From positions 24,567 through 88,566 of the forward strand of contig CAYGVT010000017.1 of NCBI GenBank assembly GCA_964353355.1: a stretch of 64,000 nucleotides of DNA, read 5' to 3'. Shown in pieces: positions 1,645-50,948 of this stretch; the first letter of the stretch is position 1, and the number at the start of each line of letters is the position of its first letter. Position numbers and translations under genes: made by a program. This DNA comes from an uncultured Thermoplasmata archaeon. GTDB lineage: Archaea; Thermoplasmatota; DTKX01; GCA-020343715. The notes under the pieces were generated by a model. It did not search any database and had not been told where the DNA came from. It saw nothing but the letters and a program-made list of their open reading frames with translations.

Positions 1645-1762
1645 CCAGTGCCTCCAAGGCACTATCCAACATATTACCTTTTTGCTGGCAAGGCCCGGGC
1701 TGGCATCGCCATCCGGCTGGCCGACCTCCAGGGCCGAACACAAAGGATATTAAGCCATAGGG

Positions 1763-1777
1763 CCCTTATATAAAGGG
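1763..1777 (+). promoter_or_regulatory. archaeal TATA box (CCCTTATATAAAGGG, near-palindromic) for the 1813-12465 operon
   Basis: AT-rich TATA-like element about 40 nt upstream of ATG 1813 in an otherwise 68% GC context; similar TTTAWA motifs precede several other genes in the window. Confidence 0.5.
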
Positions 1778-1812
1778 CCTGGCGCTGCATGGCGGGGAGG
1801 GAGTGACTGACG

Positions 1813-3315
1813 ATGGAAGTGAAGGTGCACTACTTCAAACCGACGGGGGATGTCGAGACTATCGACAAGATGGAGGTGGACAGCAAAGAGACCATCCGTG
1901 ACGTCAAGGAGAAGCTCATGATGTACTACGGATTGAGCGACGACCTTGCCGACCCCTACTGTCTGGGGACCCACATGACCCCTTCGCCCCCAGATGAGAC
2001 GATTGTCGGGGACCTCAAGATCAAGTCCGGCGCCATCATGTTCCTGCGCAAGGCCTCCGTGCCCCCGCCACCGCCGCCCGCATCGGCCAAGGGCATGCTC
2101 CTCACGCTGAAGGAGGGTACCTCACGCAAGGTCCTCCTGAGCCGGGACGACGCCGTGCAGCTCGCCGTGGACCACGGGGACCTTGTGCGCCTCTCCGACC
2201 CCGTGAGCGGCATCTCGGTCGTGGGCAAGGTGGAGGTCTCGGACGGACTGACGATAGGGTCCTGCGAGATCGATCAGACCCTCGTCGACTCGATCGGCTC
2301 CTCCGAGGAGATGGAGGTGAGCGTCCAGAAGTTCGACTCGGGCAAGCTGCGCACGGTGTCCGGCATAACGTTCGGCATCAAGCCGATCGGGGGCATGTCG
2401 GACACGGACGCGGTCCTCCTCGTGAGGGAGAAGGAGGAGGCCCTGCTCAGCTTCATGGACAAGTCAATCATCGTGAAGGGCCAGAAGTTCAGGTGGGACG
2501 CGGGGGGGGTGCTGGTCTACATCCTGAACACCCAGCCGCCCCTGGGCCACGACGAGGTCGCGGTGGTATCGAACGAGATCCTCGGCGAGTACAAGTACCA
2601 GGCCTGGGGCGTGGAGCCGAACTTCGACGGCGTCCTGCTCATCGACCTCTCCTTCTCCATGAACACCGAGGACATGCCTGTCCGGAACATGGACCAGGCG
2701 ATCAAGTACCTGGGCTCAGGCTTCGAGGACAACGACACAAAGGCGTTCCTCGGCGGCTTCAAGGACGGGGGGCAGTGCCGCAGGCTCGAGGGCGCCATAC
2801 TCTCGGCCATCATGTACCTGGCGGGCAAGATCGGCCGCGGCAAGGGCGAGCGCGTGGCATTCGTGCTGTTCAGCACCGAGGCCAACTTGATAGACTTCTC
2901 GGGCTCCCCGTTCTACGACGCGACGATGAACAGGGACCTTTCGGGCATCGCCCGCAAGCTCATCACCACCACCAACACGATGGAGATGCTCGGTACCAAC
3001 ATGACCAGCGCCCTCGAGGCGGCCCTCTGGGTGTCAGAGCGCATGGGCCAGAACAAGATGAAGATGATAGTGATCCTCACGGACGGCTACCCGGACGACG
3101 AGGCGAAGGTCCGTGAGTACGTGGAGAAGGTCATCGCGCCCAAGCCGGACATCGTGGTCTTCGGGGCGGGCATCGGCCAAGAGGTCAACCAGGAGTTCAT
3201 GCACGCCATCACCACCTCCACCGGTGGCGAGTTCCTGCAGGTGAAGAGCCTGGACGAGCTCACCGAGTGGTACAGCAACCTCGCCCGGAAGCTCGAGTTC
3301 AAGGGAAGGAGGTAA
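1813..3315 (+). CDS. ubiquitin-like (beta-grasp) domain plus small beta-barrel domain plus von Willebrand factor A (vWA) domain protein
   Basis: 500 aa. N-terminal ~80 aa (MEVKVHYFKPTGDVETIDKMEVDSKETIRDVKEKL...IKSGAIMFLRKA) has a ubiquitin-like beta-beta-alpha pattern followed by a PPPPPP linker. Middle LTLKEGTSRKVLLSRDDAVQLAVDHGDLVRL resembles AbrB/Cdc48-N-type barrels. C-terminal vWA with MIDAS DLSFSMNTED, then MKMIVILTDGYPDD and VVFGAGIG. Confidence 0.8.
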   Translation: MEVKVHYFKPTGDVETIDKMEVDSKETIRDVKEKLMMYYGLSDDLADPYCLGTHMTPSPPDETIVGDLKIKSGAIMFLRKASVPPPPPPASAKGMLLTLKEGTSRKVLLSRDDAVQLAVDHGDLVRLSDPVSGISVVGKVEVSDGLTIGSCEIDQTLVDSIGSSEEMEVSVQKFDSGKLRTVSGITFGIKPIGGMSDTDAVLLVREKEEALLSFMDKSIIVKGQKFRWDAGGVLVYILNTQPPLGHDEVAVVSNEILGEYKYQAWGVEPNFDGVLLIDLSFSMNTEDMPVRNMDQAIKYLGSGFEDNDTKAFLGGFKDGGQCRRLEGAILSAIMYLAGKIGRGKGERVAFVLFSTEANLIDFSGSPFYDATMNRDLSGIARKLITTTNTMEMLGTNMTSALEAALWVSERMGQNKMKMIVILTDGYPDDEAKVREYVEKVIAPKPDIVVFGAGIGQEVNQEFMHAITTSTGGEFLQVKSLDELTEWYSNLARKLEFKGRR

Positions 3316-3319
3316 GGGG

Positions 3320-6300
3320 TTGGCATGGCGGCCCACCCCCGAGCCTGACGAAGAGAGGATGGCCCGCGAGGAGGTCCTGAGGCTCCAGACGGAGCTCAAC
3401 CGGCTGTACCTAGCCGGCCATCCAATCGCTCACTTCGAACGCAGGCTCGATGACCTGAAGGGGGAGATGCGGGGGGACAGGTTCGAGGAGTCCCTCCGAC
3501 GGGCCAGGGAGCTTCTATCGGAGCTGGATGGGTACAAGCGGGCGGTCCTCGCCTCGAGCGCCCTGCTTCTGGAGGTCCGGTCGCTGACGGCCAAGGCCAA
3601 CCTGATCGGCATCGATACCGTGCTGGCGAAGGTCGACGTGGACCGGGCGGAGGCGATGCTCCAGAAGGGAGAGCTGGAGGGTGCCATGGCCCTGGCACGG
3701 CCTCATCTGGTACGGCTCAGGCAGACCGTCTGGGAGTACGAGGTCGCGCGCGATGCGGTGCTGCTCGCCCAGCAGACCATCTCGAGGCTATGGGCGTCCG
3801 GCACCGACGTCTCGGAGCACGAGCGCACCCTCGGGAAGGCCCGCGCGGAGATGAGGAGGAGGGACTACGCCCGCGCGCTCGAGCTGGCCCATGAGGCGAG
3901 CCCGGACAGGTCTGCCGCGGAGACCGAGCGGCAGACCGCGTCGAGGCTCGCGGCAAGCCTACGCGACCTCTTGGGCGTCGCCCAGGGCAAGGGCATCGAC
4001 ACGGCCACGGCCGAGGGGGCCCTGCAGGAAGCGGAATCCCAGCTGGGGCGGGGGATGATGGGCGTCGCCATGAGGCATGCCCAAAGGGGAATAGACGAGC
4101 TGGACCCGCGCATCATGGCCTACGACCATGTGGAGGAGCTGGGCAAGAAGGCGCTCGAGGTGTACTCGACCATCGCCGCGACGGTCGGGCATGGGTCCGG
4201 CGTCGAGGCCGAGCTTGGGAGGCTCAAGCCGCTCCTCGCAGAGGGACGTGCAGAGGAGGCACGGTCACTGGCCACCGAGCTCATCGAGCGGCTCACTGCC
4301 CAGAGGGACGTCGTCGCCTCGTTCTGCGCGCTGCGCGCCCCGACCGTCAGGTACCTTGCCGAGCTCCGCGGGAGCGGGGGCGCGGACGTGGACCGGGCGG
4401 ACGAGCTCATGCGGGATGGTGAAAGGCTCTACGCCTCGTGGGACTTCAACGGCGCGTTGGAACGCCTCAAGTCGGCGAACGACGCACTGCTGGGCGCCCT
4501 CGCGACGCCCCGGGGCATGGACCGCCTGGAGCGGGCCATCGCGCGGGCCCTCGGTGAGGCCTCGAGCGAGAGCCTGCGAACCGAGCTCGCAGGCAGGCTG
4601 GAGGAGGGCCGCCTCGTCAGGGAGCGGTCCGGGCCCAAGGAGGCCTACAGGGCGCTCGAGGAGGTCCGCTCCACCCTGAGGGCGTCCGCGACCGGCGCGA
4701 GGGGCCATGCGGGCACGTCCCTGGAGGAGGGCGAATGGACCGCCGGGGGCCTGCTCGACGAGGGGGGCCAGGGCGCCCTGGGCGGCATCGGCCATGCGTC
4801 CGCGGCAGAGGAGCGGTACGAGCACGAGGCGATGCTCGAGCACGAGCAGGCGATATTGGGCGAGATAGCCAGAATGTCGGCCGACCTCCAGCAGATCGGC
4901 GCGGACCCCGGCATGCTCAAGGAGATCGGCACGGACGTCCGTGACCTCCTGCGGGCCGGCGATGCCATCGGCACCGACCTGCTGTTGATGCATGCCAGGC
5001 GGCTCGCGGCGCCCAACCGCTTCGCCTTCTCGCACGGCGTGGAGATGGAGATGGGACTGGTCTACCGCGACGGGTCCTGGGTGACGGGCGAGCGGGTCAC
5101 CCGGGTCATCTCGGACCTCGTCGAGGAGGGCGTCAAGCTGCTCCGCAGGACCATCGACGAGGGCAAGGTCCCCTCCTACGTGAGCAAGCGGATCGTCGAT
5201 GTCCGGCTGGCCCAGCCGAGCCACCCCAAGAGGGGGAAGGTGGTGGAGGTCGACTACATGGTCGGCGGGCAGCTCGTGACGATAGACGTGCTGGGGAGGG
5301 ACGCGCATGGGTCCGGCACGACGTACATACTGGAGCTCGTGTCCCCGCCGTGCGTGTACGTGGAGGAGCTCCTGTGGTGGCTCCACACGCTCCAGCGCAT
5401 CTCATGCGCCATCTTGGGCGTGAGGCACCCTGACGTCCTCCCCATCTCCGTGGGACTGAACCCTGCCCAGCCCTATTCCGAGTGCATCTCGTTCGGGGAC
5501 CATCACCACATCAAGCTCCCCGACGAGGCGTCGCGCAGGGCCGCCTTCAACATGCTGCGCGCCCATGTGCCGCACCTCATCGCCCTCACCGTGAACTCCC
5601 CGATATACAAAGGCGACGTCCCCGCCATCAGGTGGGACGGTTCGCATCCCATCCAGCTCGGCTCGAGGACGGACCCCCTGTCACTGAGGCTCAGGGAGAA
5701 CATAGGGCAGCTGGGCCCGATCGGGGGCGCCTACATCCCATACCTGCGGGAGGGCGATGGCCAGGACCACTTCACGAGTGCCGTGAGGAAGGCATCGGCG
5801 GCCGACGCCCGGCTCGTGGACATCTACCCCTTCACCCGGTTCGGGACCATCGAGATCAGGTTCTTCGACGCCCAGCTCTCGGTCGTCGACAGGGTCGCCC
5901 TCGCGGTCATCATCCAGTCGCTGTGCGCCTGGGCGGTGCGTCAGATGCGTGAGGGGGGGGAGGGCCCCGAGGTCGACCCCCAGGTCCTGCTCGAGAACAG
6001 GGACAGGGCCATCCAGAAGGGGATGCTGCTGGGGTTCAAGAAGGACAAGACGCTCGCGACGGCGCACCCTGGCTTCGCGAGGCTCTACCAGTCGGAGGGG
6101 GAGGGCGGTGCAAGGAGCGTCCAACGCATACACGACGCGGTCAAGAGGATGTTGGAGAACATCCGCCCCGAGATGGAATCCATCGTCCCCCCCGGTGGCC
6201 TGGGCGGCAGCCTCGACACATACTTGGTCATGGTCCATGGCGGGGACAAGCGCGTGATCCCGCCGCCCATCACGCCCAGCCAATTCCTGGTGTACAAAAC

Positions 6301-7072
6301 GATGATGATGAACAACGACGTCCCCGCGCTGGTGAGGTACATCAGCTCGATCGTCCAGAAGTGCGGGAGGAACTCCAGGTACAACCCCATCGTGGAGGCG
6401 CTGGGGGCGCCAGACCTCTGGTCCTCGGAGGTGCGGCCATCCCAGGCCCCTGGCCAGGGAGGGTTGGGGGTCATGGGAGCCGGCGGACCGGGCGGTACGG
6501 ATGGCGGGGGGGCCGTCCCGACGACGACCGGCGCCTCGCCATCCGGGCCCGACGCGGCATGGTCGCCCAAGGCAGGGGCGGATGGCGACGCCCAACTGCC
6601 CCCGAAGGCACGAGGGACCGCCATCCATCTGGCAGGAGCCCCGTCGCCCGCCGGGCCACCTGCGGGGGCCACGACGGAGACCCCTCCCGAGGTCCAGATG
6701 GCAGGCGCACCCCTCCCTCCCCATGCTGGCCTCTCGACGGATGCACCGGGTCGCAGGGATGGTGGAACGGAACACGGGGGCGGGATGGCAGGGCAGCCCG
6801 TCATGGTCGGCGGAGCCATCGTGGCCCAGGTGGAGGACATACCGGTCCCCACCGACGCGCGCGCGGGGAGCGCGGAACACCCCCTGAGCTGCGGCTCGTG
6901 TCATCACGAGGTCGAGCCAGGCTTCCTCTTCTGCCCTCGCTGCGGGTCGCAACTGACCCCATCGTGCCCCTCATGCGGGAACGCGGCGACGCAATCGGGG
7001 CTCTTCTGCCAGCACTGCGGCCATCCCTTGGGACAGGGGACCACCGTCCAGGCCAGGGGTGAGCAGCGTTGA
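3320..7072 (+). CDS. large multidomain protein: N-terminal alpha-helical/coiled-coil region (~550 aa), GCS2/YbdK-type carboxylate-amine ligase domain, Gly/Pro/Ala-rich linker, C-terminal double zinc ribbon
   Basis: 1250 aa. Residues ~560-950 match YbdK/GCS2 motifs: FSHGVEMEMGLV (vs YbdK LGIELEMQVV), GDHHHIKLPD (vs HVHVGC), HLIALTVNSPIY (vs HFIALSAASPYM), FTRFGTIEIRFFDAQ (vs HFGTVEVRVMDT). C-terminus CGSCHH...FCPRCG...CPSCGN...FCQHCG is a DZR-type zinc ribbon. 4-nt gap to upstream gene. Confidence 0.85.
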   Translation: MAWRPTPEPDEERMAREEVLRLQTELNRLYLAGHPIAHFERRLDDLKGEMRGDRFEESLRRARELLSELDGYKRAVLASSALLLEVRSLTAKANLIGIDTVLAKVDVDRAEAMLQKGELEGAMALARPHLVRLRQTVWEYEVARDAVLLAQQTISRLWASGTDVSEHERTLGKARAEMRRRDYARALELAHEASPDRSAAETERQTASRLAASLRDLLGVAQGKGIDTATAEGALQEAESQLGRGMMGVAMRHAQRGIDELDPRIMAYDHVEELGKKALEVYSTIAATVGHGSGVEAELGRLKPLLAEGRAEEARSLATELIERLTAQRDVVASFCALRAPTVRYLAELRGSGGADVDRADELMRDGERLYASWDFNGALERLKSANDALLGALATPRGMDRLERAIARALGEASSESLRTELAGRLEEGRLVRERSGPKEAYRALEEVRSTLRASATGARGHAGTSLEEGEWTAGGLLDEGGQGALGGIGHASAAEERYEHEAMLEHEQAILGEIARMSADLQQIGADPGMLKEIGTDVRDLLRAGDAIGTDLLLMHARRLAAPNRFAFSHGVEMEMGLVYRDGSWVTGERVTRVISDLVEEGVKLLRRTIDEGKVPSYVSKRIVDVRLAQPSHPKRGKVVEVDYMVGGQLVTIDVLGRDAHGSGTTYILELVSPPCVYVEELLWWLHTLQRISCAILGVRHPDVLPISVGLNPAQPYSECISFGDHHHIKLPDEASRRAAFNMLRAHVPHLIALTVNSPIYKGDVPAIRWDGSHPIQLGSRTDPLSLRLRENIGQLGPIGGAYIPYLREGDGQDHFTSAVRKASAADARLVDIYPFTRFGTIEIRFFDAQLSVVDRVALAVIIQSLCAWAVRQMREGGEGPEVDPQVLLENRDRAIQKGMLLGFKKDKTLATAHPGFARLYQSEGEGGARSVQRIHDAVKRMLENIRPEMESIVPPGGLGGSLDTYLVMVHGGDKRVIPPPITPSQFLVYKTMMMNNDVPALVRYISSIVQKCGRNSRYNPIVEALGAPDLWSSEVRPSQAPGQGGLGVMGAGGPGGTDGGGAVPTTTGASPSGPDAAWSPKAGADGDAQLPPKARGTAIHLAGAPSPAGPPAGATTETPPEVQMAGAPLPPHAGLSTDAPGRRDGGTEHGGGMAGQPVMVGGAIVAQVEDIPVPTDARAGSAEHPLSCGSCHHEVEPGFLFCPRCGSQLTPSCPSCGNAATQSGLFCQHCGHPLGQGTTVQARGEQR

Positions 7073-9579
7073 CGGGCCCGATCATCGATGCCAGGGCGCT
7101 CCTGGGCCTGCTGCGTGCGACCAGCCCCTCAGGCTGCGCGCTCTGCGGTGGAAGTGCACGTGTAGTGTGCACAAGGTGCCGGTCGCGCGTCTGCCCTGAG
7201 TGCGATGCCGGGGCCGATGGCACGGGACGGAAGAAAGGCCGGAGGGGAGGGCGCGGGCCGGCCGTGTGCCTGGCCTGCGCGCTGGAAGGAGGTGACGCCC
7301 CCAACGCCGCCAGGGTCGTGGAGGCACGGCTGTCCGACCTGAACTTGATGGTGAAGGACCTCAAGTCGGGGGGGGGGACGGTCGGGCCGGGCGCGCTGAT
7401 CAGGCCCGCGCATGCCACGCTGCTCCAGCTCGCCTGCCTTGAATCGGTGCTGGGCAGGGAGGGGCTCGAGGCATCCTCCACAGTCCTGAGGCGAGGCCGG
7501 CCGTTCCTCTTGAGGAACCTGGGCCATGCCCTGTCCATCACGGCGGAGGCCGGCCGGCCGACACAATCCAGGGTCGGCGAGCAGCTCGACGCGTACTATG
7601 GCTCGGTAGTTGCCCTGCTGAGAGGTCCGCCCAGGCCCGCTGGGGAGGCCCCTTCCGTCGATGGCGCCGATGGGGACGGGCTATCGTGGGCGCTCGCCAT
7701 CGAGGTGGGGCTGGACAGATTGCGGAGGTACTTCAGCTTCCATCACCTGGACGAGCCAGGGACGACCGTCGATGCCCTCCTCGGACGGGTCTCCAGGAGC
7801 CTGGATGATACGCTCGCCACATCGTCGCCATCGCCTGCCTCGGTCCAGATCGCCGCCATCAGGAAGGTCCTGTTGGAGGTGGATGGGTTTGACGACTACG
7901 ACTCCACGGCGCTGCGGCGATATCTGGACCCCTCCATGGCGGAGACGATCGACGTCCCGGAGATGTCGGCGTTCGTCCGGAGGCTCCTCATCGCCGAGCT
8001 CCTGCTCGCCCTCGCCATCGCCAGGACCGAGGCCGCACCGACCATCCCGGGGAGCGTGAGGGACGACCTGGACACGGACATCGAGAGGCTCGGGACGACG
8101 ATAGGGCGCCTGCTCAGGGCGGCGGACGAGAGGGGGGGTCGGCCCAGCGCGCTGCCCGGCCTCCTCGAACGCGCGCAGTCGGCCACGTTGTCGGCCATGC
8201 GAGCGGCCGTGAGAGCGCGGAGGGCGGCAAGGGCCGGGTCCTATGCTAAGTCGCTCGTGGCGGCGATGCGGGCGATCGTCTGCCTGGAGGGCGTCAGCCT
8301 GCTGCACGAGGCCGCGTTCGGCATGGGCCCCAGGGAGGCCGACATCTGGGACGTGCTCGATGCCTGGACGACCGAGCTCCTCGAGAGCAGCGCCGCCACG
8401 GCCATCGCGGCGCAGGGGGCGCAGGGCGGGCCATGGGACGCAGCGCAGGTCCGTCGCGTCCTTAACGCGACCGATGCCCTGGAGACGAGGTTCGTGGGCA
8501 TGCTCGAGGGTCTGGGCGCCTCATCGAAGGCCGACACCGGGTACATCAGGCCCGCCCACGATCATCTGTGGGGACTGGTCAGATCGATGGTCCTGGCACG
8601 CCTCGCCCCCTCCCCCGACCCCACCGCCCTCATGGGTGTCGTGGGCGGATCCACGGACGACCTCCGCGACCTGCTGGCCCTGAGAAAGGCTCATGGCAGG
8701 CCCCCATCGACCAGGCAGGACGCCTGGTTCGAGGCCAGCCTGGATTCCCTGCGGGCGATGGCCTCCCCGGCCCCCTCCGTCGTGGCCCCCCAGACCCCGG
8801 TGGTCGAGACGGCCGCGGTCCAGGAGGTCGCCGTGGCGGTCCGTCCCGTGCGGCCACCGCCATCCCCGCTCGAGGAGCTGGGCCTCGAGCGCATACTCGG
8901 GGCGTTCGGCGACGCCCCCAGGCTCGTTCGGTGCGGGGGCCTGGGCGCGGGGGGGCTCGTGGCGGTCCTTCTTCCCGGGACGGTGGAGGCGCTCGAGGGG
9001 CTCGAGGGCCGTCTCGGGGGCCGTCTCGGGGGCTCGATATCGATATCTGAAGACCACCTCTCGGCAAGGCTCGTGGCGGTCCCCAGGACGGACGACGTCT
9101 GGGAGGCCAGGGAGCTTGCGCGGGAGGCGTCGCTGCTCCAGATTCTGGCACAGGGCACCCCGGCGGGCGGCCCGGTCACGCTCATCGCCTTCGCATCGCT
9201 CCCTGCGCCTGGAGGGCCGATGGCGATACTCTCGGACACCTGGATCGTCTCGGAGGAGCGCACGGTGAGGCAGTGGGGCCGCCGGGAGGCCCCCGCCTCC
9301 TCCACCGTCTCCGGGCCCATGGACGGCCTGCATGCGGCGCTCTCGAGGGCCGGAGGAGTGACGGTCATCCGGGACGATGGCGGGGCCTACCTGCAGGGAT
9401 GGCTATGGGGCCTCCTGCGCGAGCTGCGGCTCAGGGAGGGCGCGTTGGAGGGAGCGCCCGACGTCCGCGCCGTGCAGCTCGCGGGGAATGCGGCCTTCTA
9501 TCGCTGGCTGTCCGAGGATGGGGCGCGCGATGGCTCCTTTGGAACGACGCTCGATGCCCTCTCACAGGGGGCGGGGTGA
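7069..9579 (+). CDS. hypothetical protein with N-terminal 8-Cys zinc-binding module (4x CxxC) and long Ala/Leu/Arg-rich helical region
   Basis: 836 aa. Starts TTG in a TTGA overlap with the stop of the preceding gene. CALCGGSARVVCTRCRSRVCPECD...VCLAC gives four CxxC pairs (binuclear treble-clef/RING- or B-box-like spacing). No other recognisable motif. Confidence 0.7.
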   Translation: MTGPIIDARALLGLLRATSPSGCALCGGSARVVCTRCRSRVCPECDAGADGTGRKKGRRGGRGPAVCLACALEGGDAPNAARVVEARLSDLNLMVKDLKSGGGTVGPGALIRPAHATLLQLACLESVLGREGLEASSTVLRRGRPFLLRNLGHALSITAEAGRPTQSRVGEQLDAYYGSVVALLRGPPRPAGEAPSVDGADGDGLSWALAIEVGLDRLRRYFSFHHLDEPGTTVDALLGRVSRSLDDTLATSSPSPASVQIAAIRKVLLEVDGFDDYDSTALRRYLDPSMAETIDVPEMSAFVRRLLIAELLLALAIARTEAAPTIPGSVRDDLDTDIERLGTTIGRLLRAADERGGRPSALPGLLERAQSATLSAMRAAVRARRAARAGSYAKSLVAAMRAIVCLEGVSLLHEAAFGMGPREADIWDVLDAWTTELLESSAATAIAAQGAQGGPWDAAQVRRVLNATDALETRFVGMLEGLGASSKADTGYIRPAHDHLWGLVRSMVLARLAPSPDPTALMGVVGGSTDDLRDLLALRKAHGRPPSTRQDAWFEASLDSLRAMASPAPSVVAPQTPVVETAAVQEVAVAVRPVRPPPSPLEELGLERILGAFGDAPRLVRCGGLGAGGLVAVLLPGTVEALEGLEGRLGGRLGGSISISEDHLSARLVAVPRTDDVWEARELAREASLLQILAQGTPAGGPVTLIAFASLPAPGGPMAILSDTWIVSEERTVRQWGRREAPASSTVSGPMDGLHAALSRAGGVTVIRDDGGAYLQGWLWGLLRELRLREGALEGAPDVRAVQLAGNAAFYRWLSEDGARDGSFGTTLDALSQGAG

Positions 9580-9582
9580 CCG

Positions 9583-11157
9583 ATGCTCCGGTTGACAGAC
9601 GACTCTGGCAGGTCGCACGGCTTCCTCGTGGCGGACGTCCACCACCACGTCGGCAGCGAGGGCCAGACGAGGAACCTCAACCCCAAGGAGCCGAACGGCT
9701 CGTACGACTTCTTCAGGGGGGTCCAGTACGGGTCCGAGTCCAAGCCAGGTCTGGCGACCATCCTCAGGGATTCCGACGCCTTCAAGTACCACATCACGGG
9801 GGGGGAGGCGTTCCCCCCTCATCCCATGCTGAGGTGCCTCTCCCTCGCCGACGAGCGGATGGGGAGGGCCTTCGAAGGGAGCTGGGCCATCGACCTGTCC
9901 GTGGCGTTCCCGATGCACGACGACTTCCGCTCCAACGACGTCGTCGAGTACAGGGCCTCCAACAGGCGGCTTGCCAAGGTCGTCGGTGTCCTGCCGAACA
10001 GCCTGAGGTTCATCCCGTGGGGAAGGGTCAACCCGGACGACGGGGCGGTGGCGTGCGAGGAGCTGCACAGGGCCGCCTCAGAGGACGGCATCAGGGGCCT
10101 CAAGCTCCATCCCAAGAGCGAGGGGTTCGACCTCGAGGGGGCGGGGTTCAGGCTGGTCCTGCGCGCGGCGGCGAGGCATGCCCTCCCCGTCATCCTGCAC
10201 ACCGACTGGAAGAGCGACCGCCGCCGCATCGTCGAGGCCGTCGACGACACCATCGTCGCGCTCGCGTCGGAGGGCGACGTGGGGGCGATAGCCGACCTGC
10301 GGGTCATCCTGGGGCACTTCGGGTGGGCCGTGGACCCGGAGATGATAGGCTTCATAGCGCACCCCTGTGTCTACGGTGAGGTCTCCGGGCTGCGCGGCAG
10401 GGGAGCGACGGAGTTCTTCAGGATCGCGAGGGACCACTTCCCCGACCACAGGTGGGACGCCTCGGCCCTCCTTTCGAGGGTCCCAGACCCGTCCAGCGTG
10501 TCCAGGGCGCTCCGCCCGGGGATAGTGGGGGACTGGTCGAGGAAGGTGATGTACGGGTCGGACAACCCCTTCCTCAACCAGAACAACTCCATCGACACCA
10601 TCGGCGCCATCTTGGGCAGGGAGCTCGACCTCACGGCCCTCGAGGTGGCGAACATCCTGGGCCTGAACGCGCTCGCGCTCTTCGCCAACGGCGCCGACGG
10701 GATGGACGGTGGCGGCCGTCCAGCGCCACCGGCGATGACCGTCCCTGGCCAAGTCCCGTTCTCAGGCACCCTGGAGGATGGCGCCCTCTTCCTGGCGGTC
10801 ATGCTGAAGGGCCTGCCCCAGAACATGAGAAGGGTGCGCTTCGTCCCGCTGCTGGCCGCCGAGCCACAGCCCCGGCTGCTGCCCGAGCTGGGGGTGCTGC
10901 ACGTGTCGGGGCGCGAGGAGAGCGGGACCTCGTTGCTCTCGGTCCAGCTGGGGGCCACGGGTCGGATGGGGTTCATGGCAATCGATTGTCCCGCATTCCC
11001 GCCCGCTGCCCTCGGGGACCCCCTGTCCCAGCTCGTCGCCGATGGCCTCGTCGCCGCGGCATCGAGGCAGCCAGGTTGCCAGGCGGCCACGATGGCGGAG
11101 GCGCTCGTGCTGTCACGGTTGGGCACCCGTGGCGGGGAAGAAGCCCAGGAGGATTGA
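9583..11157 (+). CDS. amidohydrolase-2 family (TIM-barrel metal-dependent hydrolase)
   Basis: 524 aa. FLVADVHHHVGSE near N-terminus, GLKLHPKSEG, PVILHTDW, ILGHFGW and MYGSDNPF are spaced as in PF04909-type metal-dependent hydrolases. 4-nt gap from upstream gene. Confidence 0.75.
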   Translation: MLRLTDDSGRSHGFLVADVHHHVGSEGQTRNLNPKEPNGSYDFFRGVQYGSESKPGLATILRDSDAFKYHITGGEAFPPHPMLRCLSLADERMGRAFEGSWAIDLSVAFPMHDDFRSNDVVEYRASNRRLAKVVGVLPNSLRFIPWGRVNPDDGAVACEELHRAASEDGIRGLKLHPKSEGFDLEGAGFRLVLRAAARHALPVILHTDWKSDRRRIVEAVDDTIVALASEGDVGAIADLRVILGHFGWAVDPEMIGFIAHPCVYGEVSGLRGRGATEFFRIARDHFPDHRWDASALLSRVPDPSSVSRALRPGIVGDWSRKVMYGSDNPFLNQNNSIDTIGAILGRELDLTALEVANILGLNALALFANGADGMDGGGRPAPPAMTVPGQVPFSGTLEDGALFLAVMLKGLPQNMRRVRFVPLLAAEPQPRLLPELGVLHVSGREESGTSLLSVQLGATGRMGFMAIDCPAFPPAALGDPLSQLVADGLVAAASRQPGCQAATMAEALVLSRLGTRGGEEAQED

Positions 11158-11160
11158 ACG

Positions 11161-12465
11161 ATGGACCGGACCGCTCTCACCCTCAAGTTCGCTGCAATCG
11201 ATGAATCGAAGATAGCCCTCTCCCCGGCTGACGCTGCGACGCTCGGTGTGGACGTCGGGGACATAGTGAGGGCCATGGACGAGAACTCCATGGAGCTCGG
11301 CGGCGCCAAGGTCGAGGTCAGGGGCGACGTCGAGACGGGCTCGTTCCTGGCCAGCGAGCAGTTCGCCGAGTCGCTCGCCATGGACGAGGGCTATCCGTAC
11401 ACCCTCGAGCGTTACGATGGCGAGATGGACGTGTCGCTCGAGACGGTGATCCTGGACATCACCGAGATGGGCGCCAGGACAGACATGGGGAGGAGCGTCA
11501 CGAGGGGGCATAGCGCGTTCGAGGGCTTCCTCCGTGGCAAGGTCATCAATCGCGGGCTGAAGCTGAGATGGTCCGAGATGGGTGTGAACATCGAGGTCCG
11601 GCAGACGGTCCCGCCCCTGCGGGACAACCAGTACGTCATAGTTGGGGACATCGCCAAGATGGAGCTCTACGCCGTCGGTGTCCCGTTCAACGGCATCCTC
11701 CTCGTGGACGTCAGCAAATCCATGAACGAGACGGACATGGTCGTGGATGACCGCGTCCTGCCCATGCTCAGCAGCCTCCACTACCTGGCGGACAATGCTA
11801 TGCCGGCCATGCACGACTACATCGCCCGCATCGAGAAGAGCGATCGGATACGGAGGATCGACTCGGCGGCCCTGTCGGCGATGCTGTACCTCTCCGAGAA
11901 GGTGGCGAGGGGCCAGGGGGAGAAGACCGCGATCATAACGTACTCGGACCGCGCAGAGCCGCTCTCGTACAGCCTCAGGGAGGGCGATGCCGTGATAGAG
12001 GTCCCATGGTACGACCTCTCCAAGGGCAGCGTGGGGGAGGATGAGAGGCGGGAGGCCGCCGTCGTCATCGGTGATGCGCTGCTGATGCGCATCGAGCGGG
12101 CCGAATCGAAGAACACCAACATGGAGGCGGCGCTCCTGCAGGCCAAGAGCGTGATAGAGATGATGAAGGCCAAGGAGGCCGGGTCCGCTCAGGGCCCTCC
12201 CAAGCCCATCATGGTCGTCTTCCTCACCGACGGCGAGTACAACGTCGGTCGCTCACCTGTGCGGGTGGTCCAGGAGGCCTTCAAGGCCCTCGAGGGGGTC
12301 GTGGTCCACACCGTGGGGATCGGGGGCAGCGTCGACGAGGCGCTCCTGAAGAGGGTCGCCGAGCTCGGGGGGGGGGAGTACTGCAAGGCCCAGAACCTCG
12401 TGGAGCTCGTCGACTTCTACAGCAGGAACGCGAAGCGGTTCGGGACCAGCGCCTTGCTGAGATGA
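11161..12465 (+). CDS. vWA domain protein (paralog of the C-terminal two-thirds of 1813-3315)
   Basis: 434 aa. N-terminal LTLKFAAIDESKIALSPADAATLGVDVGDIVRA matches the barrel module of the first gene. vWA with MIDAS DVSKSMNETD, IMVVFLTDGEYN and VHTVGIGG. 4-nt gap from upstream gene. Confidence 0.8.
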   Translation: MDRTALTLKFAAIDESKIALSPADAATLGVDVGDIVRAMDENSMELGGAKVEVRGDVETGSFLASEQFAESLAMDEGYPYTLERYDGEMDVSLETVILDITEMGARTDMGRSVTRGHSAFEGFLRGKVINRGLKLRWSEMGVNIEVRQTVPPLRDNQYVIVGDIAKMELYAVGVPFNGILLVDVSKSMNETDMVVDDRVLPMLSSLHYLADNAMPAMHDYIARIEKSDRIRRIDSAALSAMLYLSEKVARGQGEKTAIITYSDRAEPLSYSLREGDAVIEVPWYDLSKGSVGEDERREAAVVIGDALLMRIERAESKNTNMEAALLQAKSVIEMMKAKEAGSAQGPPKPIMVVFLTDGEYNVGRSPVRVVQEAFKALEGVVVHTVGIGGSVDEALLKRVAELGGGEYCKAQNLVELVDFYSRNAKRFGTSALLR

Positions 12466-12520: not shown

Positions 12521-13015
12521 TCACGGCCCTCGCACAGGGATCTGCTTGGTCACGTCGCCACCCATGGTCGATTGGCCCCCCGAGGCCTTGATGGTTATGA
12601 AGGCCCCTTCGCTGCCAGGGAGGTCGAACGTGAGGTCGTCAATCACCGCCTTGCCGTATTTATCGGTCGATGCTGGTATCATTGTGAATCCAGGGCCAGT
12701 GATCTCGACCTTGGCACCATCCACGCCGCTGTTCTTGGTGTCGAGGACCTTCAGTTCCAACTTGATCTTGGCGGGGCTGGTGCTGCACTGATAGAGCGTC
12801 CCGCTCTTCCACTCGGCGTTTTCAATAACCGTGATGGTGACCTCTATCTTGTCTATCTGGTCCTTGCTGATGTTAGAAATAAGGTACGCGATCGTCGCTA
12901 TGACCAGGATGGCCACGATAATGGCTATCAGGAGCGTGATGGCCTCCATGCCCCCGTCCTGGGGCCTGAACCGATGCAAGCGATAACTCCCTCTCCTCAA
13001 CTCGTTCCCCTCCAT
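12521..13015 (-). CDS. small secreted/membrane-anchored beta-rich protein with pilin-like N-terminal TM helix; low-GC gene
   Basis: ORF 164 aa (alternative start Met23 at 12949: MEAITLLIAIIVAILVIATIAYLI). TATA-like GGTATATATAG at 13043-13053 upstream on the minus strand. Local GC about 55% versus 68% surroundings. Confidence 0.6.
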   Translation of the reverse strand: MEGNELRRGSYRLHRFRPQDGGMEAITLLIAIIVAILVIATIAYLISNISKDQIDKIEVTITVIENAEWKSGTLYQCSTSPAKIKLELKVLDTKNSGVDGAKVEITGPGFTMIPASTDKYGKAVIDDLTFDLPGSEGAFITIKASGGQSTMGGDVTKQIPVRGP

Positions 13016-13470
13016 CGAGTGGTCGTGTAATGTTGAAGCAGGGTATATATAGTTTGCCAGGCGATAGAATTTGGCCAGGGTCGAATGGGAGGGCCTCCCT
13101 CATCGAGGGGCCGTCCCTGCGTCCCTGCGTCGAGGATGCGAGCGGGTCGGTCGCACCGGAGGTCGGGGGTCGCCATCGAAAGATGGTGCACATCGAGCAA
13201 GAAGGTCGGTCGAGGTGCTGACCATAGGGGCCGGGTGGAGGGCCGTCACCGATTGCCATGGGGATGGTCATCGGGGGGCGGGTCGCATCCGGGGGCGCGA
13301 AGCACTGACGGGAGACCGAGTCGGCCCCCCCATACCCTTGTCGATGGGAGCAAGAACCTGGGGACCGATCGACTGCACCGCCCCTCTCGCTTGGATTGGC
13401 ATCTGGGGAGGGAACGAAGGATTATATAGTGACCCTTCCTATATTCCAAGGCGGAGGAAAGGTGGATCCC

Positions 13471-14664
13471 ATGTTCTGTGGGGGATGTGGTGCCCAGCTC
13501 GTCGAAACCGCGATGTTCTGCCCGTCTTGCGGTCGCAAGGTCGAACTACAGCCCGTCCAAGGTGGTGCGGCCCCGCCCACGGGCGGCCAGGGCGCGGGAG
13601 CCTCCGGGACCCAGCTCCTCTGGACCCCGCCCCCTCAGCCCCAGCAGGCCGCGCCCCGACCGCCGCCACCACCGCCTCCCGCGGCTCCATGGGGTCAGCC
13701 CATGCCCCCCGTCCAGGCCACGCCGCAGAGCTATGTCCCTGTGAGCCCGGTGCAAGGTCAGGCACCGGCACCCGCATGGGCGCCGGCCTATACCCCGCCC
13801 CCGTACCTCCCGGCGCCGCCCGCCGGGGCCGCAACCACAGCGGCCGGAGGGCCCTCCGGGCTGACATCCAAGGTGAGGGGCCATGCCCGTGGCCTTCCCG
13901 CGTTGGTCAGGGCCTCCACCGCGAACAAGGTCCTGGCGGTGGCGATGGCGATGGGCATCATCGGCGCCCTCCTCCTTCTATTCGGCCCTCTGGGCTCGTA
14001 CAGCTCCAGCACCACCACCAGCTCATCCAACAGACACTACAACGGGTACACGGACACGTACTACTACACCACCGACTACAGCACCTCTTGGAGCGACACG
14101 ACACTCACCATCGCCTCTGCACAGTTCGGTCTGTCTGGCCTCCTTTCAATCATCGCACTGCTGGCCGGTGTCTTCCTGGTGTACAGGTCGATGCTGACCG
14201 ACGACCCCGTTAGCAAGTGGAAGTACCTGCGTCGCGGCTTCCTCCTCCCCATCGTGGCCATAGTGGTCATGTTCGTGACGGGAGCGGCGTTCGCGAGCTG
14301 GGCCGACTCCCAGGAATACGATGAGATCGGTATCGAGGCGGGGCTCGGATGGGGTGTGATATTCAGCATCCTTCAGATGGTACTTGTGCTCGGAGCCTCG
14401 ACCCGTATCCCGAGACCCGCGGATGTGCGTCCGCTCCTCCACCCCGCGATCATGGCCCCCGTGGAGAGGGCCACATCCATGGTGCGCCAGGGGTCGAGGT
14501 CGGCCTTGAACCAGTCCAAGCCCGAGCTGATGGCCCCCCAGGGGATGCAGATGCAGTCAGGCGGTCCGGTCAGCAGCGGTCCAATGGGCGCTCCATACTA
14601 CCCTCCGATTGGCACGGCCCCTCCACCGTACGGGTACCCACCGCAAGGGGGTCCACAGAGGTAG
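13471..14664 (+). CDS. zinc-ribbon domain membrane protein (N-terminal DZR zinc ribbon, Pro-rich linker, multiple TM helices)
   Basis: Start at MFCGGCGAQLVETAMFCPSCGRKV, preceded by GGAGG and a TATA-like ATTATATAG at 13421-13430. Long PPPPPPP linker, then hydrophobic helices (VLAVAMAMGIIGALLLLFG, LSGLLSIIALLAGVFLVY, LLPIVAIVVMFVTGAAFA). Confidence 0.65.
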   Translation: MFCGGCGAQLVETAMFCPSCGRKVELQPVQGGAAPPTGGQGAGASGTQLLWTPPPQPQQAAPRPPPPPPPAAPWGQPMPPVQATPQSYVPVSPVQGQAPAPAWAPAYTPPPYLPAPPAGAATTAAGGPSGLTSKVRGHARGLPALVRASTANKVLAVAMAMGIIGALLLLFGPLGSYSSSTTTSSSNRHYNGYTDTYYYTTDYSTSWSDTTLTIASAQFGLSGLLSIIALLAGVFLVYRSMLTDDPVSKWKYLRRGFLLPIVAIVVMFVTGAAFASWADSQEYDEIGIEAGLGWGVIFSILQMVLVLGASTRIPRPADVRPLLHPAIMAPVERATSMVRQGSRSALNQSKPELMAPQGMQMQSGGPVSSGPMGAPYYPPIGTAPPPYGYPPQGGPQR

Positions 14665-17654: not shown

Positions 17655-17990
17655 CGGAAGGCTTTTTAATACCCTGGGGCCATAGATTCCCGGTAAGGGA
17701 GGGAAGCCCGGGTGAGGAAGTCACTAGTGGTGGGGGTCCTAGCGGTCCTGCTCGCATTGCCAACCTTCGTAGGCCTACCGCATGAGGCCCCCGCGGACGG
17801 TCAGCCTTGGGACGAGGCTCAGGTCGGACCGCGCATCACCGCACCGAATCTGGCCGAGGTCTCCGAGATATTCCGTGGCCTCCAGGGTTTCTTCACCGAG
17901 AACCTCGGCCTGGTCGACAATCCCGAGGTCAGATTCTACGCGCAGGGGGACGCTCTGTCGGTTGGGTTCACGCTCGATGGCCTCATCCTA
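17655..17990 (+). repeat. duplicated promoter plus 5'-CDS module (copy A), ~80-85% nucleotide identity to 26605-26940
   Basis: Aligned by eye: ...TTTTTAATACCCTGGGG...GGTAAGGGAGGGAAGCCCGGGTGAGGAAG...GGTCCTAGCGGTCCTGCTCGC...TTCTACGCGCAGGGGGA... shared with the region upstream of and within gene 26660. Confidence 0.7.
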
Positions 17991-20900
17991 TTGCTGTCAG
18001 ATGACCGCACTTCGGATGGCACCTCGACCGGTGAGGGCCCCTCCGAGACCTACGTTCTCAAGCTGTCGTTCGAGGATGACCGGTCGGTGGAGCCCGTGGG
18101 CTTCCATGCGGTGCCGCACTTGACGAACTCATTCGTCGGCAACGACGCATCGAAGTGGGTGCGCGGGGCCAGGAGTTTCGAGGAGGTGAGGTACGAGGGC
18201 CTGTACGAGGGCATCGACCTCAGGTTCCACTTCAAGGATGGACGCCTGAAATACGACTTCATCCTAGCCTCGTGGGCGGACCCCGGCTCGGTGCGGATGA
18301 GATACGATGGTGCCACCGGGCTCCGTGCGGACCCGGAGACCGGCGACATGTTGGTCTCGACGCCCATGTGCACGCTCAGGGACGAGCGGCCCGTCATCCT
18401 CTGGGAGGCGGCGGGTATGGCAAGGAGCTGCCCTGGCGATTTTGCGCTCGGCGGGAATGGCTCTTGGGGTTTCGCCCTGCCCGAGGGGGTTCCGCGTGGC
18501 GTCCCGATGACCATTGACCCTGGACTGGCATGGTCTACGTTCCTCGGGGGTTCCGGGAGGGATACCCTCTACAGCGTGGCTGTGGATAAAGATGGGTCAG
18601 TATATGCCGTCGGACAGACCGACTCGATCAACTACCCGACCACTTCGGGAGCCTACGACCGCACGCAGAACCAATATAAAGGGCTCGTGACGAAACTGGA
18701 CCCATCGGGCTCAACGATACTGTTCTCCACCTTTTTCGGGGGGACGAACAGCACTGTCCCGGGTGGTAGCACTGTGACCCAGTCCGCTGGAATGACACCC
18801 GATGGGAACCTTGCCCTGGCGAGCATCACATATTGCGATGATTGCCCGACAACGCCGGATGCCATCTACGCGACACATAGGGGTAGAGCAGACATTTACT
18901 TCCTCGTCCTCAATCCACAGGGGAGCGACTTGGTCTATGCCTCATACCTTGGAGGAAGCGATCGGGACGTCGCGCATGACCTCGTCATCGACGATGAAGG
19001 CGCCGTCGTCATCGTGGGCGAGACCAGCTCTCCCGATTGGACGGTCCCGCCCAATACGTACTGCAGCACCTACAATGGCGTCAATGACGTGTTTGTCCTG
19101 AAGTTGAGCCCCACGTACCATGAGATACGAGCGATGACCTACCTCGGTGGGACATCTAACGATATGTCCTACCAGACCGACGTCGATTCCGACCAGAACA
19201 TCGTGGTTACGGGCGGGACATTCTCGACCGACTTTCCAACAACACCGGGTGCCTATTGCACGACCCATGCAGGATACCTCGACAGCTTTCTCACGAAGTT
19301 CGACCCGAATTGCACAAGATTGATCTTCTCCACAATGTACGGGGGGACTGGCCAGGACGATGGCTGCCGTCTCCGTGTGTGCGGTGATGGCAGGATCTGG
19401 GTCGGGGCCGAGACGACCTCCCCGGACTACCCCGTCACTCCTGATGCCCAATACGATAGCTTCTCGGGAGATGTCGATCCTGGCATCTCGGTCTTTGATG
19501 CTACCGGGTCGCGCTTGCTTTATAGCACCTACTTCCCGGGGACGAGATACGAATCGGTCTACGGCTCGGCTATCGATGAGAAGACGAATCAAATCTATTT
19601 CTACACCCGCAGCAGCTCAACCGTGCTGCCAACGACCAAGGGATGCTATTGCCCCGTGTACTCCGGAGGTTCCAATGATTTGCTGGTCGTCGGTTTCAAC
19701 CTCACAACTTACAAGTTCGATTACTGCACGTACATAGGTGGGTCGGGGGTGGATAATGTCGATCTCTCATGGGGCGACACCATGATGGTCGATGATGAGG
19801 GCTATCTCTACCTCGCAGGAACGACTGCCTCCACCGATTTCCCGACGACCGGGCAGGCGGCGACCCGTGCATACGCCGGAGGTACATTCGATGGTTTCGT
19901 CCTCAAGCTCGACCCGAGGCCAATCCAAGACCCGCCGGAAAAACCGACCGGTCTGGTATCGAGGCCTGGCAACAATCAAGTTGAGGTCATGTGGGATAGT
20001 CCGACAGCAGAAAACTACAAGGTTCACAAGTACCAGGTCTTCAGGTCGCCCAGGGACAGGCTGGGGCCAGATGCCATCAAGTGGTTGGTCACAAAGGGAA
20101 CATCATACAAAGACATGACGGTACAGAACGGGAAGACATATTATTACTGGGTCTCGGCCTTCAATAGTGTGGGGGAAGGCGCCCTCGCCGGACCGGTGGA
20201 TGGTCGGCCCATGGGGTCGCCCAGCGCGCCGCAGAACCTCGTCGCGCAGAGCGGAAACGGACGCGTCACGCTCACCTGGACGCCCCCGGCCACCATGAGT
20301 GGCGGGCAACTGCTAGGTTATGTCGTGCTGAAGGGTGGCAACAGCCATGAGCTCGTGCAACATGCCTTGATCGGCGCAGATGATAGGTGGGAGGACACGG
20401 AGGTCGAACTGGGCAAGACCTATTTCTATTCCCTGAAGGCTTTCAATGAGATATTCTCTGGTGAGCAGAGCTCGATTGTCGGTATCAAGGCAAGGGATAG
20501 GGCCTCGGCACCATTGAAGGTTAGTCTGGTGCCCATCGACAGGGGCGCTCTCATCTCATGGCAACCCCCCTTCAGCAATGGGGGCGCCACGATCCTTGGT
20601 TATCACATCCTCAGGGGACCATCCGAGGAATCCATGGAGATTGTCGGGATCACGTCACCATCCGAGCGGTCCCTCCCCAACTATGGTCTGACCAACGGAG
20701 TGGAATACAACTACAGTGTGGCAGCTTTCACCGAGGTGGGCATGGGCTACCCTAGCGAGCCTCTCACGGTCAAGCCAACCGGCACGCCCTCAGAACCACG
20801 CAACTTCATCGCGATGAGAGGCGACGGGTCCGTACGCCTGATATGGGATTCCCCCGCGAACGATGGCGGATGGCCAGTGACGGGTTATAAGGTGTACGCG

Positions 20901-26539: not shown

Positions 26540-26604
26540 ATTCGGACGGGGATGTCCTTTATGAATCGTTTAAGACAGCAAAGGTATCCGTTTGTTAAAT
26601 AACC

Positions 26605-26940
26605 GCAAGGTTTTTTTATTCCCCAGGGTCTTGGTTGCTAGGTAAGGGAGGGAAGCCAGGTGAGGAAGACAGTGATGGTGGGGGTTCTAGCGGTCCTGCT
26701 CGCTTTGCCAACTCTCGTGAGCCTGCCGCAAGGTGCCCCTGCAGACGGGCAGTCCTCGGACGGGGCCCGGGTCGTCCCACGCACCACCGCACCAGACCTG
26801 GCCGAGGTGTCCGGGATGTTCCATGGCCTCCCGGGTTTCCTCACCGAGAACCTCGGCCCGGTCGACAACCCCGAGGTCAGGTTCTACGCGCAGGGGGATT
26901 CTCTCTCCGTAGGCCTCCCACGCGACGGGCTCATCATCAC
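26605..26940 (+). repeat. duplicated promoter plus 5'-CDS module (copy B), counterpart of 17655-17990
   Basis: GGTTTTTTTATTCCCCAGGG...GGTAAGGGAGGGAAGCCAGGTGAGGAAG...GGTTCTAGCGGTCCTGCTCGC...TTCTACGCGCAGGGGGA. Confidence 0.7.
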
Positions 26941-50720: not shown

Positions 50721-50948
50721 GACCCTTTCGTCGAGGCTAAACCCCGCGCGCGACCCTGGTCTCCCTTCTGGCAGACGGCGAACGCCGACGCGCCACCGAG
50801 CCAGGCTCCGGGGGCACCCCTACACGGCATGTCATGGTGCGGCACGACCTCCGGTACCCGTGGCCGCGACCACCCACATGCGCCCGCGCGCGCGGGCGCG
50901 CGCGCGGGGAAGGTTCATATACCGCCCTTTCCCTCGGGGGCGCGGGGG

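Follow-up and report, generated by a model that had tools for sequence, protein, structure and literature searches.

We analysed a 64,000-nucleotide (nt) stretch of contig CAYGVT010000017.1 (positions 24,567–88,566) from an uncultured Thermoplasmata archaeon, hereafter the window, in which five co-directional open reading frames (ORFs) on the plus strand (1813–12465) are spaced by 3–4 nt or share 4 nt. Together they encode a predicted carboxylate-amine ligase, a metal hydrolase, two von Willebrand factor A (vWA) proteins with a metal-ion-dependent adhesion site (MIDAS) and an orphan zinc-finger protein. All five ORFs, the gaps and the TTGA overlap proposed in an earlier reading of this DNA (the original prediction) were reproduced at the same positions. 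The genes and the element upstream of them are as follows.

1760–1779, plus strand: GGGCCCTTATATAAAGGGCC, near-palindromic TATA-like putative promoter element, read from the sequence, 40–47 nt 5′ of the gene 1 ATG
1813–3315, plus strand: gene 1 (500 amino acids (aa)), probable ubiquitin-like domain, proline-rich linker, Cdc48-type N-domain and vWA domain with MIDAS
3320–7072, plus strand: gene 2 (1250 aa, TTG start), helical N-region, GCS2/YbdK-type ligase, low-complexity linker and double zinc ribbon
7069–9579, plus strand: gene 3 (836 aa, TTG start), eight-cysteine zinc finger, helical region and C-terminal domain; lineage-specific orphan
9583–11157, plus strand: gene 4 (524 aa), Amidohydro_2 TIM-barrel metal hydrolase with a variable C-terminal extension
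11161–12465, plus strand: gene 5 (434 aa), gene 1 paralogue lacking the ubiquitin-like head; Cdc48-type N-domain and vWA domain with MIDAS

Genes 1 and 2 are separated by 4 nt (3316–3319; GGAAGGAGGTAAGGGGTTG), genes 2 and 3 overlap by TTGA (7069–7072; GCAGCGTTGACG), and 3-nt gaps separate gene 3 from gene 4 (9580–9582; GGGGTGACCGATG) and gene 4 from gene 5 (11158–11160; AGGAGGATTGAACGATG). A purine-rich, GGAGG-like (Shine–Dalgarno-like) motif stands 5–13 nt 5′ of every internal start (8 nt upstream of the gene 2 TTG), and their position inside the upstream genes is as expected for translationally coupled genes. In favour of the TTG starts of genes 2 and 3, amino-acid conservation in relatives begins at residue 1; in gene 3, the eight invariant cysteines stand upstream of an alternative downstream start chosen in one gene call. 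The spacing, the internal motifs and the presence of the same five genes in two related loci (L089 and L090) support the proposed single operon. The near-palindrome upstream of gene 1 may serve as its promoter, and the gene 1 homologues of L089 and L090 are preceded, at a comparable distance, by a TTTATAA element.

The ligase domain of gene 2 lies between two regions of other kinds.

3320–5026, plus strand: gene 2 residues 1–569, alpha-helical and fast-evolving, without a known family
5027–6349, plus strand: gene 2 residues 570–1010, carboxylate-amine ligase domain (NCBIfam TIGR02050, 1e-15)
6875–7039, plus strand: gene 2 residues 1186–1240, double zinc ribbon (Pfam DZR, 8.3e-8; Zn_Ribbon_1, 3.6e-7)

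NCBIfam and Pfam both returned the GCS2/YbdK assignment made originally, with scores below the curated cut-offs (Pfam GCS2, 19.9 bits versus 21; TIGR02050, 57.9 bits versus 176.4); judged by these scores, the gene 2 ligase is a divergent, separate subfamily and not a YbdK equivalog. The catalytic signature is intact: in an alignment of 24 homologues, the GhExE, ELxTPP, HxH, NSP and ExRxxD motifs are complete, and residues G573, E575, E577, E672, H728, H730, N759-S760-P761, R790, E845, R847 and D850 are either invariant or conserved at 90% or more. Against the PDB, the ligase profile matched only YbdK (1r8g and 1tt4), with three motif blocks aligned. YbdK/GCS2 enzymes (PF04107, TIGR02050) have all of the catalytic motifs in common with the gene 2 ligase and are its closest sequence relatives; the latter differs in an insert of about 95 aa after the first strand, a longer C-terminal helical part and the embedding of the domain in large proteins with non-catalytic domains. 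GhExE is the defining motif of the carboxylate-amine ligases, within which PafA is considered to have arisen from a GCS2 precursor, and these enzymes form an acyl-phosphate on a carboxylate at the expense of ATP and then an amide with an amine (PMC2588565); YbdK has gamma-glutamyl:cysteine ligase activity (cited in PMC2588565).

Homologues of the ligase were sought with the ligase domain alone; the whole 1250-aa query had returned only itself owing to low-complexity words. The search yielded 51 proteins with 25–35% identity, and those with names came nearly all from Asgard metagenome-assembled genomes (MAGs), with one labelled Bathyarchaeota (MAG taxon names here and below are as deposited). 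The family forms a separate clade of Asgard archaea and Thermoplasmatota, with 30–35% identity to the ligase domain in the window. The domain occurs in proteins of 469 to 2786 aa, fused only to non-catalytic modules (a helical region, a zinc ribbon, helix-hairpin-helix plus SAP motifs, or a membrane anchor); the membrane helix is N-terminal in the ligases of three Thermoplasmata loci (L011, L015 and L020). In a Thermoplasmata MAG (L009, 1021–9381), a 2786-aa ligase fusion with helix-hairpin-helix and SAP motifs, which are DNA-binding modules, adjoins a divergent vWA gene, with no hydrolase within 9 kb. L089 carries a second GCS2-containing gene (1168 aa; 21229–21509, minus strand, running off the locus) convergent with the operon and directly after it, and no second GCS2 copy is present in the window. 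Downstream of the operon in the window, a 422-aa ORF (13396–14664) has an N-terminal Zn_Ribbon_1 (7e-6) of the type found at the gene 2 C-terminus.

Gene 4 encodes a divergent Amidohydro_2 metal hydrolase that appears to be active. The original family call is borne out by a Pfam score well above the cut-off (PF04909; 62.4 bits versus 26.4; 8e-17), with the barrel at approximately residues 12–370, and by the metal site, which is of ACMSD type (H20, H22, H176, H245 and D327): each of these residues, and D18 as well, is conserved in at least 97% of the 68 family members. Among solved structures the decarboxylase LigW comes nearest, with an E value of only 5e-4.

Genes 1 and 5 encode paralogues (29% identity between gene 5 and gene 1 residues 97–494; E value, 1e-36). 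The regions of gene 1 are as follows.

1813–2052, plus strand: residues 1–80, probable beta-grasp (ubiquitin-like) domain (hhalign, weak Pfam matches and a low-confidence AlphaFold2 model)
2095–2607, plus strand: residues ~95–265, Cdc48/NSF/PEX1/Ufd1-type N-domain (double-psi barrel plus beta-clam)
2620–3303, plus strand: residues ~270–497, vWA domain with a complete MIDAS

The vWA domains exceed the Pfam cut-off (PF00092, 23.8 bits) in both proteins (gene 1, 42.8 bits, 8.6e-11; gene 5, 31.2 bits, 3.3e-7). The MIDAS residues of gene 1 (D278-x-S280-x-S282, T395 and D424) are invariant among nine homologues, and the MIDAS columns of gene 5 are likewise invariant. The vWA reading of both proteins, with an intact MIDAS in gene 1, was therefore right, but a second domain had been overlooked in each. 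The AlphaFold2 model of gene 1, built from five alignment rows, has a mean predicted local distance difference test (pLDDT) score of 61 and is confident (70–87) for residues 95–265 only, the small number of rows accounting for the low confidence in the ubiquitin-like and vWA parts; almost all of its top 50 Foldseek matches in the PDB are NSF, p97/VCP, Cdc48 or AFG2 chains (best E value, 5e-11), the third-ranked being the KICSTOR–GATOR1 complex. On these structural matches, both vWA proteins carry a two-subdomain N-domain of the Cdc48/NSF/Ufd1 type. Gene 5 also has a weak match to Pfam Molydop_binding, a double-psi barrel; at the sequence level, a Pfam scan found no CDC48_N match in the operon proteins. 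Homologues of gene 1 have 43–68% identity, and the vWA fold matches include ArnB (23% identity), Ssl1 and Tfb4. In a 12-kb contig of a Thermoplasmatota MAG (L091, 281–6985 and 8986–10599), a 43%-identical gene 1 homologue has no adjacent ligase and lies two genes downstream of a 2234-aa fusion protein with an AglB/STT3 oligosaccharyltransferase.

The N-domain of p97/Cdc48 binds UBX and ubiquitin-fold adaptors, the UT3 domain of Ufd1 binds ubiquitin, and the MIDAS domain of Rea1 binds the UBL domains of Rsa4 and Ytm1. Unlike in Cdc48/p97/VAT, NSF, PEX1 and Ufd1, the N-domain modelled here is fused to a vWA/MIDAS domain and not to AAA+ rings. The combination of a MIDAS-bearing vWA domain with a ubiquitin-like domain as a potential metal-mediated ligand resembles Rea1/Midasin by analogy, from which the cluster differs in having neither the AAA+ motor nor the ribosome-biogenesis context.

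The N-terminus of gene 1 is probably ubiquitin-like and related to free-standing ubiquitin-family proteins of other Thermoplasmata clusters. Aligned with three homologues, it matched the free-standing domains in hhalign at 82% probability (E value, 1.1e-5; 62 columns). Its weak Pfam matches are all to beta-grasp families (RA_2, ubiquitin and YukD; ubiquitin at 0.07, below the cut-off), and the AlphaFold2 model has the beta-beta-alpha-beta-beta-beta order at a pLDDT of only 36–59; the beta-grasp fold originally proposed is thus supported by the profile match and strand order but stops short of proof. In L011, L015 and L020, two free-standing ubiquitin-family proteins of 154–168 aa have the ubiquitin domain at the N-terminus, one from L015 passing Pfam ubiquitin (PF00240; 33.1 bits versus a cut-off of 25.4) and its paralogue matching Rad60-SLD.

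L015, 8090–9062, minus strand: ubiquitin-fold genes
L011, 4039–4993, minus strand: ubiquitin-fold genes
L020, 1965–2922, minus strand: ubiquitin-fold genes

These small proteins end in a domain of approximately 70 aa (motif W-L-x-x-N-I-G-L-D) without a Pfam model, which recurs just N-terminal of the ligase domain at the same loci (ligase residues ~180–250; BLASTP, 4e-7). Its presence in both partners suggests homotypic pairing; it was sought in the window proteins and not found. The sequences thus point to the ubiquitin fold as a recurrent partner of the Thermoplasmata ligase clusters. In the Asgard loci, a hidden Markov model built from both sets of ubiquitin-fold sequences detected none at E values up to 1.

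The reading of gene 3 as an eight-cysteine zinc-finger and helical protein is supported.

7135–7278, plus strand: gene 3 residues 23–70, zinc finger CxxC-x7-CxxC-x4-CxxC-x21-CxxC

Three homologues keep all eight cysteines (C23, C26, C34, C37, C42, C45, C67 and C70), the first six of which are spaced in a B-box-like manner (Pfam zf-B_box, E value 0.049; 14.3 bits versus a cut-off of 24.1). An exhaustive HMMER search of 1.84 billion representative proteins with gene 3 returned only itself, BLASTP found no match between it and the gene 2 N-region, and a single-sequence AlphaFold2 model, with a pLDDT of 41, was too poor for use. Compared with L089 and L090, genes 1 and 5 and the ligase domain of the window have 66–72% identity and gene 4 has 56%, whereas gene 3 has only 27–35%; the gene 2 N-region, conserved from residue 1, has 37% against 68% for the ligase domain, and has no match in 80 other loci. 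By this measure gene 3 and the gene 2 N-terminus (about 565–569 residues) are lineage-specific and fast-evolving, which makes these helical and zinc-finger parts the leading candidates for a role in specificity.

The wider distribution of the cluster was surveyed by scanning one genome per GTDB species with the ligase. This gave 149 relatives; the best 80 loci, which were taken for comparison, come from Asgard lineages, with Thermoplasmata/Thermoplasmatota as top matches. The gene-neighbourhood census, by iterative profile searches over all locus ORFs, covers 83 independent loci; its E values are inflated by profile inclusion, and pairwise values were checked for key links. In 69 of the 83 loci, from Asgard archaea and Thermoplasmatota alike, the ligase has the hydrolase as its neighbour (no more than 300 nt away in 43 loci and on the same strand in 66), and this neighbourhood is kept despite lineage differences in gene order and strand. 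Among the 14 loci in which the ligase has no adjacent hydrolase, 8 are cut by contig ends. Conserved synteny, as predicted, was therefore found for the ligase and the Amidohydro_2 gene across two phyla, but the five genes are not one conserved unit: the conserved core is the ligase–hydrolase pair only, with gene 3 and the gene 2 N-terminus specific to the lineage. The operon in the window is a lineage-specific, elaborated version of this two-enzyme module, one of four architectures.

Most Asgard loci: cis-prenyltransferase, protein X, ligase, hydrolase and coiled-coil protein, all in the same direction
Helarchaeota-type loci: vWA–Cdc48-type N-domain protein, short X, ligase and hydrolase, all in the same direction
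Thermoplasmata loci L011, L015 and L020, on both strands: hydrolase, ubiquitin-fold protein and ubiquitin-fold protein (reverse), ligase (forward) and vWA–Cdc48-type N-domain protein (reverse)
The window, L089 and L090: ubiquitin-like–Cdc48-type N-domain–vWA protein, long ligase, gene 3, hydrolase and Cdc48-type N-domain–vWA protein, all in the same direction

The vWA–Cdc48-type N-domain protein thus joins the ligase and hydrolase in both Thermoplasmatota and Helarchaeota clusters. Protein X (560–650 aa) belongs to no Pfam family and has an Ig-like N-terminus, a helical middle and an alpha/beta C-terminus; comparison with Pfam and PDB profiles gave weak Ig-like and TPR hints only. It was considered and rejected both as a relative of the vWA family (no relation in hhalign) and as a relative of gene 3 (profile comparison probability, 0.1%). 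The cis-prenyltransferase (Pfam Prenyltransf, UPPS-like) lies 100–270 nt upstream of X and co-directional with it in 52–53 of the 59 Asgard loci with enough upstream sequence.

L006, L007 and L013 to L087 (about 53 Asgard loci): cis-prenyltransferase-linked clusters

This neighbour, absent from the Helarchaeota-type and Thermoplasmata clusters, may reflect a functional link to polyprenyl/dolichol chemistry or old synteny. After the hydrolase, 39 Asgard loci encode a coiled-coil protein of about 350 aa (for example, L006, 14866–15912), mostly across a gap of 90–250 nt, which makes the Asgard cluster at least five genes long; six loci have a different protein of about 227 aa in its place, directly after the hydrolase in four. 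The genes outside the module differ between L011 and L015, which marks the module borders.

We tentatively favour, with a confidence that falls just short of even, the interpretation that the cluster is a ligase/hydrolase writer–eraser (or writer/processing) module acting on a protein-borne carboxylate or amine, with vWA–Cdc48-type N-domain receptors and ubiquitin-fold adaptors. The gene 2 ligase would convert a carboxylate into an acyl-phosphate with ATP and form an amide from it and an amine, and gene 4 would cleave or process the same type of bond, the two forming a writer/eraser pair. As substrate we envisage a protein or a group bound to a protein. Genes 1 and 5 would act as a recognition scaffold, with their Cdc48-type N-domains and MIDAS-bearing vWA domains binding ubiquitin-fold domains (fused to gene 1 in the window and free-standing in the sister clusters) and bringing targets to the enzymes, and gene 3, the gene 2 helical N-region and the zinc ribbon would provide lineage-specific recognition of targets or partners. 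A protein substrate is favoured by three features: the pair repeatedly recruits protein-recognition modules (vWA/MIDAS, Cdc48-type N-domains, ubiquitin folds, long helical regions and zinc ribbons), all fusion partners of the ligase are non-catalytic, and the ubiquitin-fold proteins have the domain of about 70 aa in common with the ligase.

Several points weigh against this interpretation. To our knowledge, the characterized YbdK/GCS2 and Amidohydro_2 enzymes all act on small molecules, and we know of no member that acts on proteins. No candidate tag and no conserved acceptor or donor terminus was found in the cluster proteins. The ubiquitin-like assignment of the gene 1 N-terminus depends on an 82%-probability profile match and on a model of low confidence. 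No hydrolase is present at six loci whose downstream sequence extends for at least 6.8 kb, and most Asgard clusters lack the vWA protein and ubiquitin fold and have instead the unrelated X, the coiled-coil protein and the cis-prenyltransferase, so the scaffold is not universal. The broader proposal, that Asgard archaea and Thermoplasmatota possess an E1/E2-free protein modification in which a YbdK-type amidoligase writes, a TIM-barrel amidohydrolase erases, and Cdc48-type N-domain/vWA and ubiquitin-fold proteins direct, is for now a doubtful one.

The main rival explanation places the pair in small-molecule or glycolipid metabolism, with the ligase making an amide (of gamma-glutamyl or another type) whose carboxylate might belong to a glycan or be polyprenyl- or dolichol-linked, the Amidohydro_2 enzyme supplying or recycling the acid (by lactone hydrolysis, decarboxylation or deamidation) and the vWA and ubiquitin-fold proteins only regulating or localizing the enzymes. 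We regard it as unlikely yet a serious contender: the characterized relatives are metabolic (YbdK as a gamma-glutamyl:cysteine ligase (PMC2588565), LigW as the nearest solved hydrolase), the cis-prenyltransferase stands upstream of X, ligase and hydrolase in nearly all of the Asgard loci that could show it, and most Asgard clusters do without a vWA protein or ubiquitin fold. However, the prenyltransferase link, which may be inherited synteny, is missing from the Helarchaeota-type and Thermoplasmata clusters, the cluster has no conserved transporter or further biosynthetic gene, and the repeated recruitment of vWA/MIDAS, Cdc48-type N-domain, ubiquitin-fold, zinc-ribbon, helix-hairpin-helix/SAP and helical modules is rare for metabolic pairs.

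True ubiquitin-like conjugation, in which the ubiquitin-fold protein of gene 1 would be ligated by the GCS2 ligase and removed by the amidohydrolase in the manner of Pup, PafA and Dop, seems improbable. A ubiquitin fold, a ligase and a hydrolase are indeed co-encoded, and PafA provides a precedent for a GCS2-derived protein ligase (PMC2588565). Yet the ubiquitin folds found here all stand at the N-terminus, ahead of another domain (the 70-aa domain in common with the ligase, or the vWA module), the C-termini vary (KGRR, SSKN, LEEN, CKKR and DGKM) with no conserved Gly-Gly, Glu or Gln, and the fold is missing from the Asgard clusters. For these reasons the ubiquitin-like part, which the original prediction placed in a tagging or peptide-ligation cycle, is unlikely to be the conjugated tag; the folds look like interaction modules and not like conjugated tags. 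In its logic the cluster is nevertheless most like PafA/Dop: in pupylation (PafA, Dop and Pup; Actinobacteria), too, an ATP-dependent ligase of the glutamine synthetase/GCS2 superfamily is co-encoded with a possible undoing enzyme, with no E1 or E2. The differences are that the cluster ligase is YbdK-like, with no Pup_ligase match and only YbdK among PDB sequences, that its hydrolase is a TIM barrel of unrelated fold, whereas Dop and PafA are paralogues of each other, and that ubiquitin-recognition modules of eukaryotic style are used. The window flanks and related loci contained neither a small disordered protein like Pup, nor an ORF with a C-terminal GGQ or GGE, nor a proteasome or Mpa gene, and the tight gene packing leaves no room for a small conserved Pup-like ORF. 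In gene content, then, the cluster is not a pupylation system.

A role in conflict or defence, or in regulation of the ArnA/ArnB kind, would make gene 3 and the gene 2 N-region sensors and the vWA proteins signalling scaffolds, which might control the neighbouring pilus-like genes. Known vWA–zinc-finger pairs (ArnA/ArnB, TFIIH p44/p34 (Ssl1/Tfb4) and the Sec23/24 trunk) resemble the cluster in that ArnB, Ssl1 and Tfb4 are among the vWA fold matches and that zinc ribbons or fingers are present in the adjacent genes 2 and 3. In the cluster, the zinc modules are on the ligase and the orphan and not on an FHA or vWA protein, there is no kinase/phosphatase context, and the relation is at the fold level only. 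The pilus neighbourhood is not conserved in other lineages, the Asgard module occurs once per locus examined and beside housekeeping genes, and the proposal would leave without a role two enzymes, the ligase and the hydrolase, whose active sites are intact; together these points make it improbable as well. Assignment as a defence system was rejected on a PADLOC scan (PADLOC-DB 2.0), which gave no match beyond a spurious one (E value, 0.028). Fortuitous juxtaposition of unrelated genes is very hard to credit, given the translational-coupling spacing, the conservation of the operon in L089 and L090 and the ligase–hydrolase pair in 69 of 83 loci from two phyla.

In agreement with the original prediction, no E1 (ThiF/UBA), E2 (UBC), JAB/MPN or MoxR was found when the five proteins and the ten ORFs flanking them were scanned with Pfam and NCBIfam. 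The cluster resembles vWA–MoxR (AAA+) systems in placing a vWA protein with an intact MIDAS within an enzyme operon, and differs from them in that neither the operon nor its flanks encode MoxR or another AAA+ ATPase. Judged by its domains, the cluster is neither a canonical ubiquitin-like, nor a vWA–MoxR, nor a catalogued defence system. We found no description of it in the open-access full-text literature, and this Asgard/Thermoplasmatota gene cluster is apparently undescribed. Published work on Klebsiella CfmP concerns an ATP-grasp enzyme and has no bearing on the cluster.

If the pair acts on proteins, it would represent a new E1/E2-independent route to reversible protein marking in the archaea closest to eukaryotes, and a third protein-tagging logic beside ubiquitylation and pupylation. 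Archaea related to the ancestor of eukaryotes would then also have employed ubiquitin-fold recognition by Cdc48-N-type domains in a setting other than AAA+ unfoldases, and the association of a Cdc48/Ufd1-type N-domain and vWA/MIDAS with ubiquitin folds in a non-proteasomal, non-AAA+ setting would bear on how the parts of ubiquitin recognition were assembled before eukaryogenesis. Even if the pair is metabolic, the cluster (five genes in Asgard archaea; five to six in Thermoplasmatota) occurs in well over a hundred species genomes without an assigned function, and it contains three families without a Pfam model (protein X, gene 3 and the 70-aa domain).

The genes that border the operon in the window are on the opposite strand (450–1743 and 12521–13084, both minus) and encode small proteins with a pilin-type N-terminal hydrophobic membrane anchor. 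In L089 and L090, the same pilin-like flanking genes adjoin T2SSE/T2SSF-type assembly genes, which indicates that they form a separate locus; the five-gene operon interrupts or borders this type-IV-pilus-like locus. Elsewhere in the window, three very large ORFs (17712–30577; 1467, 1475 and 1305 aa) encode proteins with domains of the fn3, DUF7948, SBBP beta-propeller and He_PIG/Ig types. The first two are in a stretch with a G+C content of 56–59%, against 65–71% in the rest of the window, so these ORFs may encode surface proteins gained by horizontal transfer. At 33243–36317 the window encodes a gingipain-like (Peptidase_C25) protein of 1024 aa. The archaeal tRNA-agmatidine synthetase TiaS (50712–52310) and a 5S ribosomal RNA gene (55723–55843) confirm the archaeal origin of the DNA.

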